Sequence record: NC_047899.1
Reading direction: 5' to 3' (one strand)
DNA length: 44,895 nucleotides
Source: Escherichia phage VEc3
Program-made: the position numbers and the translations under genes
In this document: piece by piece, positions 633 through 31,576 of the stretch
Position numbering within the stretch: the stretch's first letter is position 1
How the letters are laid out: each line of letters begins with the position of its first letter
The notes under the pieces: generated by a model
Databases searched by the model: none
What the model was told of the DNA's origin: nothing
What the model saw: only the letters and a program-made list of their open reading frames with translations

Positions 633-648
633 GTCTCACATGTTAGAC
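633..648. repeat. Degenerate copy of the 16-bp palindrome (GTCTCACATGTtAGAC)
   Basis: One mismatch to the GTCTCACATGTGAGAC element found at six other sites. Confidence 0.6.
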
Positions 649-1630: not shown

Positions 1631-1726
1631 TTGGATGGTAGCTTCTTAGTCTGGATAGGTTAAACCTAGGGGATTCTCTTGAGTCTCCTATAATGTAACC
1701 TAACTAACTAAATGAGGATTAACAAC

Positions 1727-2080
1727 ATGGCTATGTCTAATATGACTTACTCTCAGGTTTACAACACTGCTCATGCTGCACTGGTTGAACGCGTATGGGA
1801 TGATGCCATTGATTGTATTGATAACGCACATGATGCAATCCATGAGGTAGCGGACAGTGCTGTACCAATCTATTATGCTGACATCTTCTCAGTGATGGCC
1901 AGTGAAGGCATCGACCACTTCTTCGAGGATTCTGGCTTAATGCCAGACACTAAGGATGTGACGGTCGTACTACAAGCCCGTATTTATGAACAACTCACCA
2001 TTGATTTATGGGAACGTGTTCAAGATATGATTGATGCGTACATCGATTCCGCTGAGGATTCAGAAGAAGAAGAGGAATAA
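1727..2080 (+). CDS. ocr: Ocr-like DNA mimic (T7 gp0.3 homolog), anti-restriction
   Basis: 117 aa from ATG 1727 (GAGGA RBS); begins MAMSNMTY and contains [15 protein letters not shown] and [13 protein letters not shown]...[15 protein letters not shown] blocks recalled from T7 Ocr; acidic tail DSEEEEE; track ORF start at 1712 is probably too early. Confidence 0.85.
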
Positions 2081-2082
2081 GA

Positions 2083-2196
2083 ATGGAAAAGCTATACAAC
2101 TTCATCTTTTCAGACGGTGTAACCCTGAAGTGTTCCCTACGATTCGCTCAGATTCGTGAGGAAGTGCTAGGTACTACATACAAACTATTTAGCTGA
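2083..2196 (+). CDS. Small early ORF (37 aa), hypothetical
   Basis: ATG 3 nt after the ocr stop; below track cutoff. Confidence 0.3.
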   Translation: MEKLYNFIFSDGVTLKCSLRFAQIREEVLGTTYKLFS

Positions 2197-2210
2197 CACT
2201 ATAAGAGAAG
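2187..2210 (+). promoter_or_regulatory. Phage-promoter-like element, variant ATTTAGCTGACACTATAAGAGAAG
   Basis: Matches the SP6-type promoter except the conserved +1 G is A. Confidence 0.35.
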
Positions 2211-2272
2211 GCTTAACAAGGCGTTGCTACGGTAGCGCCTGATTAAACTTTCACTTACTAGAGGTTAAAATT

Positions 2273-2398
2273 ATGAAACTATCGCCATCCGCTAAAGGCC
2301 TCATTGCAGAACTTAAAGACTCTTTGAGGAATCCAATCATTTGGGCACTTATCTACATACCTTATGGTATCTACCTATTTCACCTCATCACTGAGTAA
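2273..2398 (+). CDS. Small hydrophobic early protein (41 aa)
   Basis: ATG 2273 with GAGG upstream; hydrophobic C-terminal segment IIWALIYIPYGIYLFHLI. Confidence 0.35.
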   Translation: MKLSPSAKGLIAELKDSLRNPIIWALIYIPYGIYLFHLITE

Positions 2399-2430
2399 AT
2401 AGCCTATAGCCTACCTATGTGGGCTATGTG

Positions 2431-2453
2431 ATATTTACTTACACTATAAGGTG
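2431..2453 (+). promoter_or_regulatory. Phage-promoter-like element, variant ATATTTACTTACACTATAAGGTG
   Basis: Resembles the phage promoter but with A at +1 and TTAC for TGGA. Confidence 0.35.
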
Positions 2454-2459
2454 ATTAAT

Positions 2460-3383
2460 ATGACTACTGAAAACACCCTTCTGTCTGTTCGTGAAGCTGC
2501 AACCGCTGAAATCAAGCAGCACTTAGACAATATCGGCACTTCTTACATCAAAGTTGGCGCTTGTCTGAATGAATTACGCGGTGATTTCGAAGGTCAAAAA
2601 GACTTTTTAGCTTATGTAGAATCAGAGTTCGGCATCAAGAAAGCACAATGCTACAAGCTGATGAGTGTAGCCCGTGTCTTTGAAGGAGACGAACGCTTTA
2701 AAGGTGTGGCTATGCGTGTAATGCTGGCGCTTGTTCCTTTCGCTGATGAAAATATAATCATGGAGAAGGCCGCAGAACTCGCCGCAGAGGGCAAGCTGGA
2801 CACTAACGCCGTAAACGCCCTGATTGATCCTAAGAAAGAGACAAAGGCCGAGACGGTACAATCTAAGGTTGAGTCGGTAAAACCGCAGGAGAACGCGACT
2901 GAGGCCGCAGAAACTATGCAAGGACATGCAACCTTTGAGGATTTCATATTAGAGAAGGCGAAAGAGGAGCTACAAAGTGTGCCGCCAGCAAGTGAGTCTG
3001 GTAACGACGAATCCGCACCGTGGGAAGACAAAAGCAAGCAGGAAGACACAAAGGCAGCGCCACGGGATAACACGGCTAACACCGAGAGTGCCGCTATTGC
3101 TGGCCTTCTGGCACAAATTAAAGCACTGACCGAGCAATTACAGGCAGCTAATGACCGCATTGCCTCCTTAAGCAGCGCACGCGAAAGCAAGAAAGCAGCC
3201 GCGCCTATGCTGCCGCAATTCAAATCTTCCTGCTTCTATGCTCGCTTAGGTTTAAGCGCTGAGGAGGCAACGAAGAAAACAGCAGTTAACAAGGCACGCC
3301 GCGAACTGGTTAAGCTAGGCTACGGCGAAGGCCATGAAGCATGGCCCTTAATCTCTGAGGCAGTAGAAGAATTAACTAAGTAA
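2460..3383 (+). CDS. Early protein (307 aa): conserved N-terminal domain, acidic low-complexity linker, coiled-coil, C-terminal domain
   Basis: Track ORF 2451-3383; ATG 2460 preferred (AAGG 8 nt upstream); occupies the slot of T7 gp0.7 but has no kinase motifs; N-terminal domain resembles a DUF3102-type phage domain (by recall). Confidence 0.7.
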   Translation: MTTENTLLSVREAATAEIKQHLDNIGTSYIKVGACLNELRGDFEGQKDFLAYVESEFGIKKAQCYKLMSVARVFEGDERFKGVAMRVMLALVPFADENIIMEKAAELAAEGKLDTNAVNALIDPKKETKAETVQSKVESVKPQENATEAAETMQGHATFEDFILEKAKEELQSVPPASESGNDESAPWEDKSKQEDTKAAPRDNTANTESAAIAGLLAQIKALTEQLQAANDRIASLSSARESKKAAAPMLPQFKSSCFYARLGLSAEEATKKTAVNKARRELVKLGYGEGHEAWPLISEAVEELTK

Positions 3384-3446: not shown

Positions 3447-6074
3447 ATGCAAGACCTACACGCTATTCAACTTCAACTTGAAGAAGAAATGTTTAACGGC
3501 GGTATCCGTCGCTTTGAAGCGGACCAACAACGCCAGATTGCATCCGGTAATGAATCAGACACGGCATGGAATCGCCGCTTATTGTCCGAGTTAATCGCGC
3601 CAATGGCTGAAGGCATTCAGGCATACAAGGAAGAGTATGAAGGTAAAAGAGGCCGTGCACCGCGTGCATTAGCTTTCATTAACTGCGTAGAAAACGAAGT
3701 GGCAGCATATATCACGATGAAAATCGTTATGGATATGCTGAACACGGATGTAACCTTGCAGGCTATAGCCATGAATGTAGCTGACCGCATTGAGGACCAA
3801 GTACGTTTTAGCAAGCTGGAAGGTCACGCCGCCAAATACTTTGAGAAAGTTAAGAAGTCACTTAAGGCAAGTAAGACTAAATCATATCGCCATGCGCACA
3901 ACGTAGCGGTCGTGGCTGAGAAGTCAGTAGCTGACCGTGACGCTGATTTCTCTCGCTGGGAGGCGTGGCCTAAAGATACCTTGCTACAAATTGGTATGAC
4001 CTTGCTAGAAATACTGGAAAATAGTGTATTCTTCAATGGTCAGCCTGTCTTTCTTCGCACCTTGCGCACTAATGGTGGCAAGCATGGCGTTTACTACTTA
4101 CAGACTAGCGAACACGTGGGTGAATGGATAACTGCATTTAAAGAGCACGTAGCTCAGCTGAGTCCAGCCTATGCGCCTTGCGTTATTCCTCCTCGTCCGT
4201 GGGTTTCTCCGTTTAATGGTGGCTTCCATACTGAGAAAGTAGCAAGCCGTATTCGTCTAGTAAAAGGCAATCGTGAGCACGTCCGCAAGCTGACCAAAAA
4301 GCAAATGCCAGCGGTTTACAAGGCTGTTAACGCTTTGCAGGCGACTAAGTGGCAGGTTAATAAAGAGGTTTTGCAGGTAGTAGAGGACGTTATTCATCTC
4401 GACCTTGGTTATGGTGTGCCTTCCTTTAAACCACTCATCGACCGTGAGAACAAGCCAGCTAATCCAGTGCCGTTAGAGTTCCAGCACCTGCGAGGCCGTG
4501 AATTGAAAGAGATGCTAACACCGGAGCAATGGCAGGCCTTCATCAACTGGAAGGGTGAATGTACTAAGCTGTATACCGCTGAGACTAAGCGCGGCAGCAA
4601 GTCGGCGGCGACCGTCCGCATGGTAGGACAGGCCCGTAAATACAGCCAGTTTGACGCTATTTATTTTGTATATGCACTGGATAGCCGTTCACGCGTTTAT
4701 GCGCAATCTAGCACGCTCTCGCCGCAATCAAACGACTTAGGCAAGGCATTGCTCCGTTTTACCGAAGGGCAGCGTCTTGATAGCGCTGAGGCGCTTAAGT
4801 GGTTTTTGGTGAACGGGGCGAATAACTGGGGTTGGGATAAGAAAACTTTTGACGTGCGCACCTCTAACGTGCTGGATGGCGAATTTCAAGACATGTGCCG
4901 CGACATTGCAGCCGATCCGCTGACCTTCACTCAATGGGTAAATGCTGATTCCCCTTACGGCTTCCTTGCATGGTGCTTTGAATATGCGCGTTATCTGGAT
5001 GCACTGGATGAAGGCACGCAAGACCAATTCATGACGCATCTACCCGTCCATCAAGACGGTAGTTGCTCTGGTATCCAGCACTATAGCGCGATGTTACGCG
5101 ATGAAGTAGGTGCGAAAGCAGTAAACCTTAAGCCTTCTGACTTCCCTCAAGATATTTATGGCGCAGTCGCGCAGGTTGTTATCCAGAAGAATTACGCCTA
5201 CATGAATGCAGACGATGCAGTGACTTTCACATCTGGAAGCGTCACACTTACAGGTGCAGAACTGCGTAGCATGGCTAGTGCGTGGGATATGATAGGAATC
5301 ACTCGCGGATTGACCAAAAAGCCCGTAATGACACTACCTTATGGCAGCACACGTCTAACCTGCCGTGAATCAGTGATTGATTATATCGTTGATTTGGAAG
5401 AAAAAGAGGCCCAACGAGCTATTGCGGAAGGGCGTACCGCCAATCCTGTACATCCTTTTGATAATGACCGTAAGGACAGCCTGACACCTAGTGCAGCTTA
5501 TAACTATATGACGGCTTTAATCTGGCCTTCTATTTCGGAAGTGGTTAAAGCTCCTATAGTGGCAATGAAAATGATTCGTCAGCTTGCCCGTTTCGCAGCT
5601 AAAAGGAATGAAGGCTTAGAGTATACCTTGCCTACTGGCTTCATCTTGCAACAAAAGATTATGGCTACCGACATGCTACGCGTATCCACTTGCTTGATGG
5701 GTGAAATCAAGATGAGTCTACAGATTGAGACTGATGTAGTGGATGAAACGGCTATGATGGGCGCTGCTGCTCCTAACTTTGTTCACGGGCATGATGCTAG
5801 TCATCTCATCCTGACTGTATGTGACCTCGTTGACAAGGGCATTACATCCATCGCAGTCATCCATGATTCTTTCGGTACTCACGCAGGCCGTACAGCCGAT
5901 CTACGTGATAGTCTAAGGGCAGAAATGGTGAAGATGTATCAAGGCCGTAATGCCCTGCAAAGCCTGTTAGATGAGCATGAAGAACGCTGGTTAGTAGACA
6001 CCGGAATCCAAGTGCCAGAGCAAGGAGAGTTTGACCTTAACGAAATCTTAGTATCTGACTATTGCTTCGCATAA
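3447..6074 (+). CDS. DNA-directed RNA polymerase, single-subunit, SP6-type
   Basis: 875 aa; begins [32 protein letters not shown] and contains [27 protein letters not shown] and IHDSFGTH motifs; ends ...DYCFA like T7-family RNAPs. Confidence 0.95.
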
Positions 6075-6082
6075 TATTAATA

Positions 6083-6116
6083 GGCCATTCCTTCGGGAGT
6101 GGCCTTTTCTTTTACC
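6083..6116 (+). terminator. Rho-independent terminator after the RNAP gene
   Basis: GGCCATTCC-TTCG-GGAGTGGCC stem-loop (UUCG tetraloop) followed by TTTTCTTTT. Confidence 0.7.
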
Positions 6117-6147: not shown

Positions 6148-6163
6148 GTCTCACATGTGAGAC
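6148..6163. repeat. 16-bp perfect palindrome GTCTCACATGTGAGAC (copy 1)
   Basis: Exact palindrome immediately upstream of the phage promoter at 6166. Confidence 0.8.
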
Positions 6164-6329: not shown

Positions 6330-6345
6330 GTCTCACATGTGAGAC
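6330..6345. repeat. 16-bp perfect palindrome GTCTCACATGTGAGAC (copy 2)
   Basis: Exact palindrome immediately upstream of the promoter at 6351. Confidence 0.8.
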
Positions 6346-6395: not shown

Positions 6396-6812
6396 ATGCG
6401 TAAATCATTAGCTCAAAGAGTAGAGCAAGCAGGTTATACTATACAAGACGACGGTACTATCAAAGGTAAGCGAGGTAACATCTTGAAACCTTGGCTTCAA
6501 TCTTCAGGTTATCCAGTTGTAAATATAGTATTCAAGAAAGGTACAAAGACAACTACCCTTGTGCATCGCATAATTGCTAGTAAGTATTGTCCTTGCTCTG
6601 ACCCGTTGGCTAATGATGTAAACCACAAAGACGGAATCAAGACTAATAATGCAGCTTCTAATCTTGAATGGATTACACGTAGGCAGAACCGTAATCACTA
6701 TTTAGGTTTTGAGGACTATATGACACTTACGGCAGAGGATGCCCGTAAGAAGAATAATGAGCGCACTATTGCTCGACGTAAATTACTTAAACAGTTGAAT
6801 AATAAGGACTAA
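6396..6812 (+). CDS. HNH homing endonuclease
   Basis: 138 aa; VNHKDGIKTNNAASNLEWITRRQNRNH motif; AT-rich relative to neighbours. Confidence 0.85.
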   Translation: MRKSLAQRVEQAGYTIQDDGTIKGKRGNILKPWLQSSGYPVVNIVFKKGTKTTTLVHRIIASKYCPCSDPLANDVNHKDGIKTNNAASNLEWITRRQNRNHYLGFEDYMTLTAEDARKKNNERTIARRKLLKQLNNKD

Positions 6813-6949: not shown

Positions 6950-8938
6950 ATGGCTATTATTCAGAATGTACCGTGTCCTGCCTGTCAAAAGAATGGACAT
7001 GATATTACTGGCAACCATCTTATGATATTTGAGGATGGCGCTGGTTACTGTAACCGTGGTCACTTCCATGATAACGGTAAACCTTATTACCACAAGCCGG
7101 AAGGTGGCATCGAGATAACCGAGTTACCTATTACTGGCAATATCAAATATACACCTTCTCAATTCAAAGAAATGGAGAAGGAAGGGAAGATAAGCGACCC
7201 TAAGCTACGCGCCATCGCACTTGGTGGTATGCGTATGAAAGACCGTTGGGAGGTTATGAATGAGCAAGAAAGGGCAGACCAAGAAGCAGAGTGGAAACTT
7301 GATGTTGAATGGTTCCTCACGCTTAAGCGTAAGAACCTTGTATCCCGTCACATTCGAGGTGACATCGCAGCAATGTACGATGTGCGCGTTGGACACGATG
7401 AAGAGGGAAGAGTCAACCGTCACTATTATCCACGATATGAAAAGGGTGTGCTTGTTGGAGCAAAATGCCGGACGTTGCCGAAGGATTTTAAGTTCGGACA
7501 CCTAGGTAAACTCTTTGGTATGCAAGATCTTTTCGGTATGAACACTTTGTCTCACGTGTTAGACAAGGGGAGACGAAAGGATTGCTTGCTTATTGTAGGC
7601 GGTGAACTTGATGCACTAGCAGCGCAGCAGATGCTCCTTGATTCTGCCAAGGGTACTAAGTGGGAAGGCCAGCCATACCATGTATGGTCTGTCAACAAAG
7701 GTGAGTCTTGCCTTGAAGAGATAGTGCAGAACCGTGAGCATATCGCCCAATTCAAGAAGATTATTTGGGGCTTTGATGGGGATGGGGTTGGGCAGAAGCA
7801 GAACCAGCAAGCGGCTCGCCTGTTTCCCGGCAAATCCTATATCCTTGAATATCCTTCTGGTTGCAAAGATGCCAACAAGGCATTGATGGCTGGCAAGGCT
7901 AAAGAATTTGTGGATGCTTGGTTTAATGCAAAGTCATCTGATGAAGTCTTTGGTAGCCAGATTAAATCTATCGCATCTCAAAGAGATAAGCTCAAGGCTG
8001 CACGTCCAGAACAAGGGCTGTCATGGCCTTGGCCTAAGCTAAACAAGGTAACACTGGGTATCCGTAAGAACCAGCTTATCATTATAGGTGCAGGCTCTGG
8101 TGTAGGTAAGACTGAGTTCCTCCGTGAAGTAGTTAAGCATCTCATTGAAGAACACGGTGAATCTGTAGGCATCATTTCTACAGAAGACCCGATGGTCAAG
8201 GTGTCCCGTGCTTTTATCGGTAAGTGGATTGATAAGCGTATTGAGTTACCTCCAACCAATGACCCGAAAGAAGACGGATACCGTGAGGTGTTCGACTACA
8301 CCGAGGAAGAAGCTAACGCCGCCATTGATTATGTAGCTGATACAGGTAAGCTGTTTGTAGCTGACCTAGAAGGTGACTATTCGATGGAGAAGGTAGAGCA
8401 AACTTGCCTAGAGTTTGAGGCCATGGGTATTTCTAATATCATCATTGATAACTTAACGGGGATTAAATTAGATGAGCGTGCTTTTGGTGGGAAGGTTGGT
8501 GCACTTGATGAATGCGTCAAGCGGATTGGTACTATCAAAGACAGACACCCAGTTACTATATTCCTTGTATCACACCTTACACGTCCTCCGGCAAACCGTA
8601 CCCAACACGAAGAAGGTGGCGAGGTTATCCTTTCTGACTTCCGAGGCTCAGGAGCTATCGGATTCTGGGCATCTTACGCCTTGGGGATTGAGCGTAATAC
8701 AAGAGCTGAAACGCTTGACGAAAGGACTACCACGTATATCTCATGTGTCAAAGATCGCGACCAAGGTATCTTCACCGGAACCAAGATTATGCTTAAGGGT
8801 GATATTCAAACCGGACGTTTGAGAGAACCACAGGCTAGAACAAGGTCATTTGATACAGGTGAAGCAAGGCAACAAGAAGTGCCGGATTTACCGGACACTA
8901 TAGAAGAGACAACTTTTGACGATGAACAGGAGTTTTAA
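6950..8938 (+). CDS. DNA primase/helicase (gp4-like)
   Basis: 662 aa; N-terminal Cys4 zinc ribbon (CPACQ...CNRGHFH); Walker A GAGSGVGKT; acidic C-terminus ending ...DDEQEF. Confidence 0.9.
   Translation: MAIIQNVPCPACQKNGHDITGNHLMIFEDGAGYCNRGHFHDNGKPYYHKPEGGIEITELPITGNIKYTPSQFKEMEKEGKISDPKLRAIALGGMRMKDRWEVMNEQERADQEAEWKLDVEWFLTLKRKNLVSRHIRGDIAAMYDVRVGHDEEGRVNRHYYPRYEKGVLVGAKCRTLPKDFKFGHLGKLFGMQDLFGMNTLSHVLDKGRRKDCLLIVGGELDALAAQQMLLDSAKGTKWEGQPYHVWSVNKGESCLEEIVQNREHIAQFKKIIWGFDGDGVGQKQNQQAARLFPGKSYILEYPSGCKDANKALMAGKAKEFVDAWFNAKSSDEVFGSQIKSIASQRDKLKAARPEQGLSWPWPKLNKVTLGIRKNQLIIIGAGSGVGKTEFLREVVKHLIEEHGESVGIISTEDPMVKVSRAFIGKWIDKRIELPPTNDPKEDGYREVFDYTEEEANAAIDYVADTGKLFVADLEGDYSMEKVEQTCLEFEAMGISNIIIDNLTGIKLDERAFGGKVGALDECVKRIGTIKDRHPVTIFLVSHLTRPPANRTQHEEGGEVILSDFRGSGAIGFWASYALGIERNTRAETLDERTTTYISCVKDRDQGIFTGTKIMLKGDIQTGRLREPQARTRSFDTGEARQQEVPDLPDTIEETTFDDEQEF
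8886..8908 (+). promoter_or_regulatory. Phage RNAP promoter embedded in the primase/helicase 3' coding sequence
   Basis: ATTTACCGGACACTATAGAAGAG, full consensus; +1 G at 8903; encodes ...DLPDTIEE... Confidence 0.65.
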
Positions 8939-9116: not shown

Positions 9117-9132
9117 GTCTCACATGTGAGAC
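9117..9132. repeat. 16-bp perfect palindrome GTCTCACATGTGAGAC (copy 3)
   Basis: Extended stem GCTTGTCTCACA/TGTGAGACAGGC, followed by TCTTATT. Confidence 0.8.
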
Positions 9133-10260: not shown

Positions 10261-10276
10261 GTCTCACGTGTGAGAC
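10261..10276. repeat. Palindrome variant GTCTCACGTGTGAGAC (copy 4)
   Basis: One central change; extended stem GGTTGTCTCAC/GTGAGACAGCC then TTTTAT. Confidence 0.7.
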
Positions 10277-14893: not shown

Positions 14894-14909
14894 GTCTCAC
14901 ATGTGAGAC
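14894..14909. repeat. 16-bp perfect palindrome GTCTCACATGTGAGAC (copy 5)
   Basis: Two nt after the upstream stop and 15 nt before the promoter at 14925. Confidence 0.8.
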
Positions 14910-31560: not shown

Positions 31561-31576
31561 GTCTCACATGTGAGAC
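31561..31576. repeat. 16-bp perfect palindrome GTCTCACATGTGAGAC (copy 6)
   Basis: Between the two large internal virion protein genes; extended stem then TCTTTAT. Confidence 0.8.

Follow-up and report, generated by a model that had tools for sequence, protein, structure and literature searches.

What is the function of the gene that lies directly upstream of the RNA polymerase (RNAP) gene in Escherichia phage VEc3? The window analyzed here (NC_047899.1, the whole stretch of 44,895 nucleotides) is the genome, complete or nearly so, of a Vectrevirus (K1-5/K1E-like; SP6 supergroup), and many Escherichia phages are 90-96% identical to it at the nucleotide level. The gene encodes a 307-amino-acid (aa) protein of the SP6 gp7 family. 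A sequence-only reading of the locus had proposed that this protein fills the slot of the T7 gp0.7 kinase as a host-takeover or transcription shut-off factor. We lean slightly towards another answer: the protein would be expressed early and bind specific DNA sequences in the phage's own genome, sitting as a coiled-coil dimer at palindromic repeats in a KorB-like manner and carrying a J-like effector domain. Direct binding of the repeat by the protein, which the sequence comparisons suggest, is in our view rather likely.

The protein has the four parts that the sequence-only reading described: a conserved N-terminal domain, an acidic linker, a helix that includes LLAQIKALTEQLQAANDRIASL, and a conserved C-terminal domain (residues about 248-307). 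The gene and the parts that precede the C-terminal domain are as follows.

2460..3383, + strand: gene for the 307-aa SP6 gp7-family protein (PHROG 4571), with ATG at 2460 and TAA at 3381-3383.
2460..2834, + strand: N-terminal domain, residues 1-125, candidate DUF3102, with a ParB/KorB-type helix-turn-helix (HTH) DNA-binding fold.
2595..2630, + strand: HTH helix 2, residues 46-57, QKDFLAYVESEF, a helix in the AlphaFold2 model.
2640..2681, + strand: predicted recognition helix, residues 61-74, KAQCYKLMSVARVF.
2646..2648, + strand: codon for Q63, predicted as the second specificity residue (family-wide Q, W or Y).
2655..2657, + strand: codon for K66, a predicted specificity residue (K in the CAC class; N or H in the AAC class).
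2835..3083, + strand: disordered acidic linker (residues 126-208; net charge -9) whose sequence and length vary across the family, with low predicted local distance difference test (pLDDT) scores.
3084..3194, + strand: long helix, residues 209-245, a putative dimerizing coiled-coil (AlphaFold2, pLDDT about 87-94).

Profile and structure searches, which the earlier reading had suggested as a check, pointed to DUF3102, with a ParB/KorB-type HTH, in the N-terminal domain and identified a J-like fold in the C-terminal domain. The AlphaFold2 model places residues 10-125 of the acidic N-terminal domain at pLDDT >90 and residues 250-307 at pLDDT 94-98, with the linker disordered. The window protein begins at the HTH domain. 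Searched alone against Pfam, it has HeLo as its best match (E 0.33) and no match to DUF3102 or DnaJ at E up to 1; searches by sequence of PDB and of NCBIfam returned no useful match, and Foldseek returned no significant PDB match for the full-length model. A Pfam scan of 119 aligned family members identified DUF3102 (PF11300) in 60 (weak matches, E up to 0.1; best 1.5e-7) and DnaJ (PF00226) in 20, also with weak matches. The window protein shares the HTH core motif of DUF3102, although it falls below every Pfam threshold itself. No function is described for DUF3102 in the literature searched. Weak matches to coiled-coil families occur among family members, and we infer from the model that the protein dimerizes via helix 209-245. 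A ParB/Srx CTPase domain was not identified, as there is no Pfam ParBc match in the window protein or among the top families of the 119 members. The protein lacks a defining feature of the J-domain, ParB and gp0.7 families alike. On sequence grounds, it is best classed as a predicted site-specific DNA-binding protein of the HTH type, in a new fusion and with a set of sites not described before.

The candidate sites are copies of a palindrome, GTCTCAC-NN-GTGAGAC, that occurs eight times in the window against 0.18 expected; five copies are identical and perfect (no strand is assigned).

633..648: one mismatch; left end, 5' of sigma70-like early promoters (672, 716).
6148..6163: perfect; after the early terminator and 2 nt 5' of the phage promoter at 6166.
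6330..6345: perfect; 5 nt 5' of the phage promoter at 6351.
7549..7564: inside the primase-helicase gene, where it codes for S-H-V-L-D; an otherwise in-frame TGA constrains the right arm.
9117..9132: perfect; intergenic, capping a 13-bp hairpin that precedes a U-run.
10261..10276: central CG for CA, arms perfect; intergenic, with an extended hairpin followed by a U-run.
14894..14909: perfect; 15 nt 5' of the phage promoter at 14925.
31561..31576: perfect; intergenic between virion-protein genes, with an extended hairpin and a U-run.

The same arms occur four to eight times in Era103, Vibrio VEN and Pseudomonas Alpheus (the Colwellvirinae phages VEN and Alpheus have a 3-nt spacer), and no copy was found in T7. 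We distinguished two classes of 16-bp duplex, class A (GTCTCACATGTGAGAC) and class B (GTCCAACATGTTGGAC). Each phage genome has 5-10 sites, and these are at conserved places. Some lie in the leftmost 400-750 bp before the early promoters, and others abut the first phage promoters just past the RNAP gene and the early terminator. Further sites separate DNA-metabolism genes or fall within the primase or RNAP coding sequence, and a single one is among the virion genes. Promoter-abutting sites lie at a near-fixed distance in several genera. Multi-copy loci identified by a motif-first scan of IMG/VR were mostly SP6-like, and the scan recovered gp7 genes missed by the protein-based search. The protein and the repeat are undescribed, and the repeat sequence is unmentioned, in the literature that we searched on SP6 gp7, DUF3102, repeat sequences and SP6-like early proteins (the SP6 genome paper was not covered).

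The protein and the repeat covary. Across about 55 loci, the inner triplet of the repeat changes with the residues at positions 63 and 66 in the predicted recognition helix. In 30 informative IMG/VR loci, residue 66 is K in 17/17 class-A loci (GTCTCAC...GTGAGAC) and is N (12 loci) or H (SP6) in 13/13 class-B loci (GTC(C/T)AAC...GTTGGAC). The combinations of residues 63/66 and inner triplet are listed below.

Q/K with CAC: about 27 loci, including L068 and L078.
Q/R with CAC: L179.
Q/N and Q/H with AAC: the class-B clade and an independent distant lineage, L174 (GTCTAAC four times).
W/R with AG(T/G): L172 and L177.
Y/R with AC(C/A): L173 and L178.
W/K with C(C/T)T: L176.

The outer GTCT/AGAC is constant throughout. 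In the protein, residues 63 and 66 are hypervariable across the family and K61, A62, Y65, L67 and F74 are nearly fixed; helical periodicity places residue 66 on one face with residues 61, 62, 65 and 69. The change from K to N accompanies a change from C:G to A:T at arm position 5, which fits the usual side-chain preferences (Lys for guanine and Asn for adenine). In the RNAP and gp7 trees, K/CAC is ancestral (Era103, Colwellvirinae) and Vectrevirus (K, CAC) is nested in the N/AAC clade, so that at least two independent coupled switches are needed. Orthologous sites with near-identical flanks changed in concert (e.g., window 9117 and SP6 8547), and none of the genomes in an eight-genome comparison mixes repeat classes. 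A decayed class-B-like relic, TCTAAC GTG CTG GAT, was identified within the window RNAP gene (4875-4892, codons about 477-482, TSNVLD), at the position where Era103, VEN and BP12B have an intragenic, putatively functional repeat copy. The relic fits descent of Vectrevirus from a class-B ancestor.

How often a variable column follows the repeat class was gauged by a proteome-wide scan of complete genomes, four of class A and four of class B, over 18 shared proteins and 5,627 variable columns; a tracking column was one that is uniform in class A and different in every class-B genome. Only 13 columns qualify, gp7 K66 among them, and the chance that the recognition helix, with its roughly ten variable columns, would receive one of the 13 is about 0.02. 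Another gp7 residue, E102, tracks the class in the eight genomes but fails in the 30 loci, and was rejected. The RNAP was also rejected as the reader of the repeat (by terminator recognition), as none of its columns tracks repeat class in the eight-genome scan; the five RNAP columns that separate the classes in the 30-locus set are all heterogeneous within class A. Covariation of specificity residues with a palindrome in the phage genome points to a phage-directed DNA-binding role. The distribution of the classes departs from host phylogeny, and this favors a reader encoded by the phage.

Might the repeats be RNA hairpins (terminators, or processing or stabilizing elements) that are read by some other factor? 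The covariation at residue 66 would then be coincidental, and the protein would be a host-directed J-like co-chaperone mimic that hits DnaK/DnaJ in the manner of Rki, an early protein of phage RB43. Copies 9117, 10261 and 31561 do sit on 13-bp hairpins with U-runs, for which folding is favored in + strand RNA (-18 to -20 kcal/mol, vs -10 to -12 for the other strand). Their flanks (of 9117-9132, 10261-10276 and 31561-31576) differ yet remain paired, including by G.U pairs on the + strand, and a terminator scan flags the repeat core. These three extended hairpins are probably real RNA structures and perhaps terminators, and the three copies may double as protein sites and RNA terminators or stabilizers.

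The core repeat, nevertheless, appears to behave as a DNA site rather than an RNA element. Copies inside essential genes force amino-acid changes: the encoded residue shifts with class, from S-H-V-L-D to S-N-V-L-D in the primase and from V-S-H to V-S-N in the RNAP. In the window primase copy, a single difference separates the right arm from the perfect class-A form, and this difference avoids an in-frame TGA; a synonymous change of TTG to TTA brings the site closer to the class-A consensus. The T/G asymmetry of SP6 repeats was considered as U.G wobble that would prove selection at the RNA level, and was rejected: class-B half-sites vary at position 4 in both orientations, with 19 T/G (U.G-pairing in + strand RNA) and 15 C/A (non-pairing) variants. 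Further, the stem sequence is kept from E. coli to Vibrio and Pseudomonas phages when a generic hairpin needs no fixed sequence, and the repeat has no match in Rfam. The departure from host phylogeny and the lack of a tracking RNAP column also count against this account. For the co-chaperone part of this account, the C-terminal domain has a J-fold, a phage J-protein that targets DnaK is documented (PMC3486835) and the N-terminal domain is acidic, but the absence of the HPD tripeptide makes Rki-like activation of DnaK unlikely. We regard the account as a whole as quite unlikely.

The layout of the phage sites resembles that of KorB, the ParB-family global repressor of plasmid RK2 (PMC11790492). 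KorB differs in having an N-terminal CTPase clamp domain, in sliding on DNA and in partnering with KorA and IncC. The phage protein lacks a clamp domain, has a J-like domain, would dimerize (if at all) by a coiled-coil, and has no detectable sequence similarity to KorB. ParB/Spo0J/Noc, SopB and VirB have the same HTH-containing helical DNA-binding fold as the gp7 N-terminal domain and, as for the phage repeat, their sites are 16-bp palindromes, some of which can be intragenic. In ParB/Noc, a change of a few residues switches specificity.

These parallels raise the possibility of a ParB-like or origin-like role, in which the protein binds the repeats as we propose but organizes or bridges phage DNA or marks replication start regions and the J-like domain recruits chaperones, as in lambda, P1 and SV40 replication, with no control of transcription. 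The fold is that of the ParB family, and the sites are multiple, dispersed and in part intragenic, like parS (L174 and L116 have a site inside their own DUF3102 gene). Two sites are in the region equivalent to the T7 primary origin, beside the first promoters past the RNAP gene, and bridging would be allowed by the coiled-coil and flexible linkers. Against these points, gp7 has neither a ParB/Srx CTPase domain nor a ParA partner, partition is not needed in a lytic phage, the J-like domain is without HPD, and the near-fixed distance between several sites and the promoters that they abut, in several genera, suits transcription control. We consider this role unlikely.

For the KorB-like protein that we prefer, a mechanism can be proposed. 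Two DUF3102 HTH domains, joined by the coiled-coil and tethered via the long acidic disordered linkers, would each read one half-site of a 16-17-bp inverted repeat, GTCT-NNN-(N2-3)-NNN-AGAC. The constant outer GTCT would be read by K61, A62 and Y65, and reading of the inner triplet would fall to residues 63 and 66 (in the window phage, K66 with CAC). Flexible tethering would explain why spacers of 2 nt and of 3 nt are both tolerated. That the sites keep conserved positions suggests a global role like that of KorB, possibly in the timing of phage transcription or replication.

The C-terminal domain is most likely a protein-protein effector module, and candidate partners are the phage RNAP, DnaK/DnaJ or the domain itself. 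It includes the following features.

3201..3224, + strand: APMLPQFK motif, more conserved than any other element of the family (L251 in 111/119 members and F254 in 106/119), inside the high-confidence C-terminal domain.
3210..3380, + strand: J-like domain, residues 251-307, with J-domain helices I-III, no helix IV and a shortened II-III loop.
3321..3329, + strand: Y288-G289-E290 in place of the HPD tripeptide, part of the clade-invariant GYGEGH.

The family profile matches solved J-domains, including that of E. coli DnaJ (best E 1.1e-5). The fold is that of a J-domain, with the antiparallel hairpin of helices II and III, though helix IV is missing and the loop is about 5 residues shorter. Immediately before helix I stands a nearly invariant P-x-LPQF motif. 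HPD is replaced by YGE in the profile alignment, and no member has HPD there except one outlier. The corresponding residues in other branches (YNPDTN, YTPETN, WNKDSN, FNAKTC) resemble a decayed YHPDKN. Loss of HPD in J-domains abolishes stimulation of the Hsp70 ATPase. Given the absence of HPD, the domain is J-like rather than functionally a J-domain, and we predict that canonical Hsp70 activation is not possible. The outlier, P0242 (276 aa; L007:451-1281, on a 1.5-kb contig that, like the contig of P0143, is too short to show gene context), is the sole member with a genuine FHPDK in the C-terminal domain loop, which suggests that the J-like domain descends from a real J-domain. APMLPQFK was also considered as a free docking peptide (e.g., for clamp binding), and this was rejected as the model puts the motif in the folded, high-confidence domain; nor does it match the QL[SD]LF consensus.

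Several known proteins share parts of this arrangement. Rki, like gp7, is an early phage protein with a J-type domain (PMC3486835), but its J-domain has a functional HPD and acts on DnaK and sigma32, whereas the gp7 family is HPD-less and has a DNA-binding domain. Tim16/Pam16 has a J-like domain without HPD, as gp7 does, and its partner is the J-domain of Tim14/Pam18; unlike gp7, it is a component of the mitochondrial import motor with no DNA-binding domain. Polyomavirus large T antigen combines a J-domain and a DNA-binding domain, by analogy only, and differs in its true HPD, other DNA-binding fold and helicase. A high-GC temperate element in IMG/VR (contig 3300017971_000172; features at L116:2474-3123 and 2645-2660, and at L059:3621-3636, 4102-4452(-) and 1493-2815) is not SP6-like and has an integrase and two copies of TGTCTCACGCGTGAGACA. 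It encodes a DUF3102-type protein with K at the residue-66 equivalent and no J-like domain, one repeat copy being within the gene for this protein, and a separate 116-aa J-domain protein with a true HPD. This element may be an unfused version of the same system.

The genomic context of the gp7-family gene is that of an early gene. It belongs to an early operon with sigma70-like promoters (716 and 1348) on one side and a terminator on the other, and lies 63 nt before the RNAP gene.

3447..6074, + strand: SP6-type single-subunit RNAP gene, 875 aa, the conserved downstream neighbor of the gp7 gene.
6082..6105, + strand: terminator-like hairpin that closes the early operon (strong in the terminator scan).

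A Shine-Dalgarno sequence, AAGGTG, is present 8 nt 5' of the ATG at 2460. We place the start there because the alternative GTG at 2451 falls within the Shine-Dalgarno sequence and homologs begin MTT. The protein matches the PHROG 4571 profile with E 2.2e-129 (residues 1-307 vs profile positions 1-287 of 289) and is 64% identical to SP6 gp7. Homologs were identified in 212 phage records (Molineuxvirinae and Colwellvirinae), nearly all aligned over the full length, from phages of Escherichia, Salmonella, Klebsiella, Proteus, Erwinia, Vibrio, Pseudomonas, Marinomonas, Ralstonia and Shewanella. Among 1.84 billion representative proteins, an exhaustive search returned only 129 relatives (representatives at 50% identity), most with both terminal domains and many with an additional N-terminal extension. 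Matches of this number and length are well outside what chance would give. In distant members (e.g., P0170, P0206 and P0235) the N-terminal extension adds 70-200 aa before DUF3102 and has no assigned family, and the window protein does not have it. Across the family, the gene is always directly 5' of the RNAP gene or separated from it by one small open reading frame (ORF).

This is also the position of the T7 gp0.7 kinase (gene 0.7 at 2021-3100, with the RNAP at 3171), and the sequence-only reading was right both about the slot and in stating that the protein is not a kinase: the best BLASTP match to T7 gp0.7 has E 17, and Pfam identifies no kinase family in the window protein. There is thus no sequence or domain similarity to gp0.7 in these searches. 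The further step in that reading, to a host-takeover or host-transcription shut-off factor that is a functional analogue of gp0.7, is unsupported. The shared slot and early expression favor it, as does the absence of a gp0.7 homolog at the equivalent position in SP6-type phages. Nonetheless, the kinase domain and any gp0.7 similarity are absent, nothing in the protein indicates host RNA polymerase, and the N-terminal specificity residues covary with a palindrome in the phage's own genome, not with sites on the host genome. We judge a shut-off function to be very improbable, although the J-like domain may have some host-directed activity.

Existing annotations of the family are mostly hypothetical protein. 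Some homologs carry 'endolysin' or 'andolysin' labels without sequence support (records KY295891, NC_047807, PP179317 and PP179315; protein P0072). A Vibrio phage homolog was termed a gp0.7-like kinase from genomic position alone (PMC4099482), and that label too is without any sequence support.

More broadly, the gp7 family and the repeat could constitute an unrecognized cis/trans regulatory system of SP6-type phages (Molineuxvirinae and Colwellvirinae). In this tentative proposal, which we hold to be doubtful in its entirety, a KorB-like protein with a two-residue code (63 and 66 against the inner triplet of GTCT-NNN) would use its HPD-less J-like domain to link the sites to the phage RNAP or host Hsp70, and so time the early-to-middle switch or replication. 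A standard laboratory RNA polymerase comes from SP6-type phages, and many therapeutic candidates against E. coli K1, Klebsiella, Salmonella and Proteus belong to this group. A conserved early gene beside their polymerase gene, previously without an assigned function (or labeled kinase or endolysin), now has a domain identity and candidate binding sites. Should the KorB-like reading that we prefer hold, SP6-type phages have a regulatory layer that is absent from T7, DUF3102 has a function and the degenerate J-domain a new use. The family would also offer a rare natural series of co-evolved protein-DNA specificities, usable as orthogonal DNA-binding parts.

Other features were identified around the gene. 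SP6-type phage promoter-like sequences lie 5' of it at 2187-2207 and 2437-2455 (ATTTAGCTGACACTATAAGAG; ATTTACTTACACTATAAGG), and might allow transcription of the gp7 and RNAP genes by the phage RNAP. A similar promoter was reported in Vibrio phage phiA318 (PMC4099482). A 10-bp stem-loop, TATAGCCTACCTATGTGGGCTATG, just 5' of the gene (2405-2428, + strand) was flagged as resembling a terminator. Its T-run is poor, however, and the element could be a site of RNA processing. Farther upstream, 1712-2080 (+ strand) encodes a 122-aa acidic Ocr-like anti-restriction protein, so labeled in related records. In the near-identical record PV717788, the RNAP and primase annotations are split. Between the RNAP and primase genes of the window, an ORF at 6396-6812 (+ strand) encodes a 138-aa HNH-type homing endonuclease that SP6 lacks at this position.
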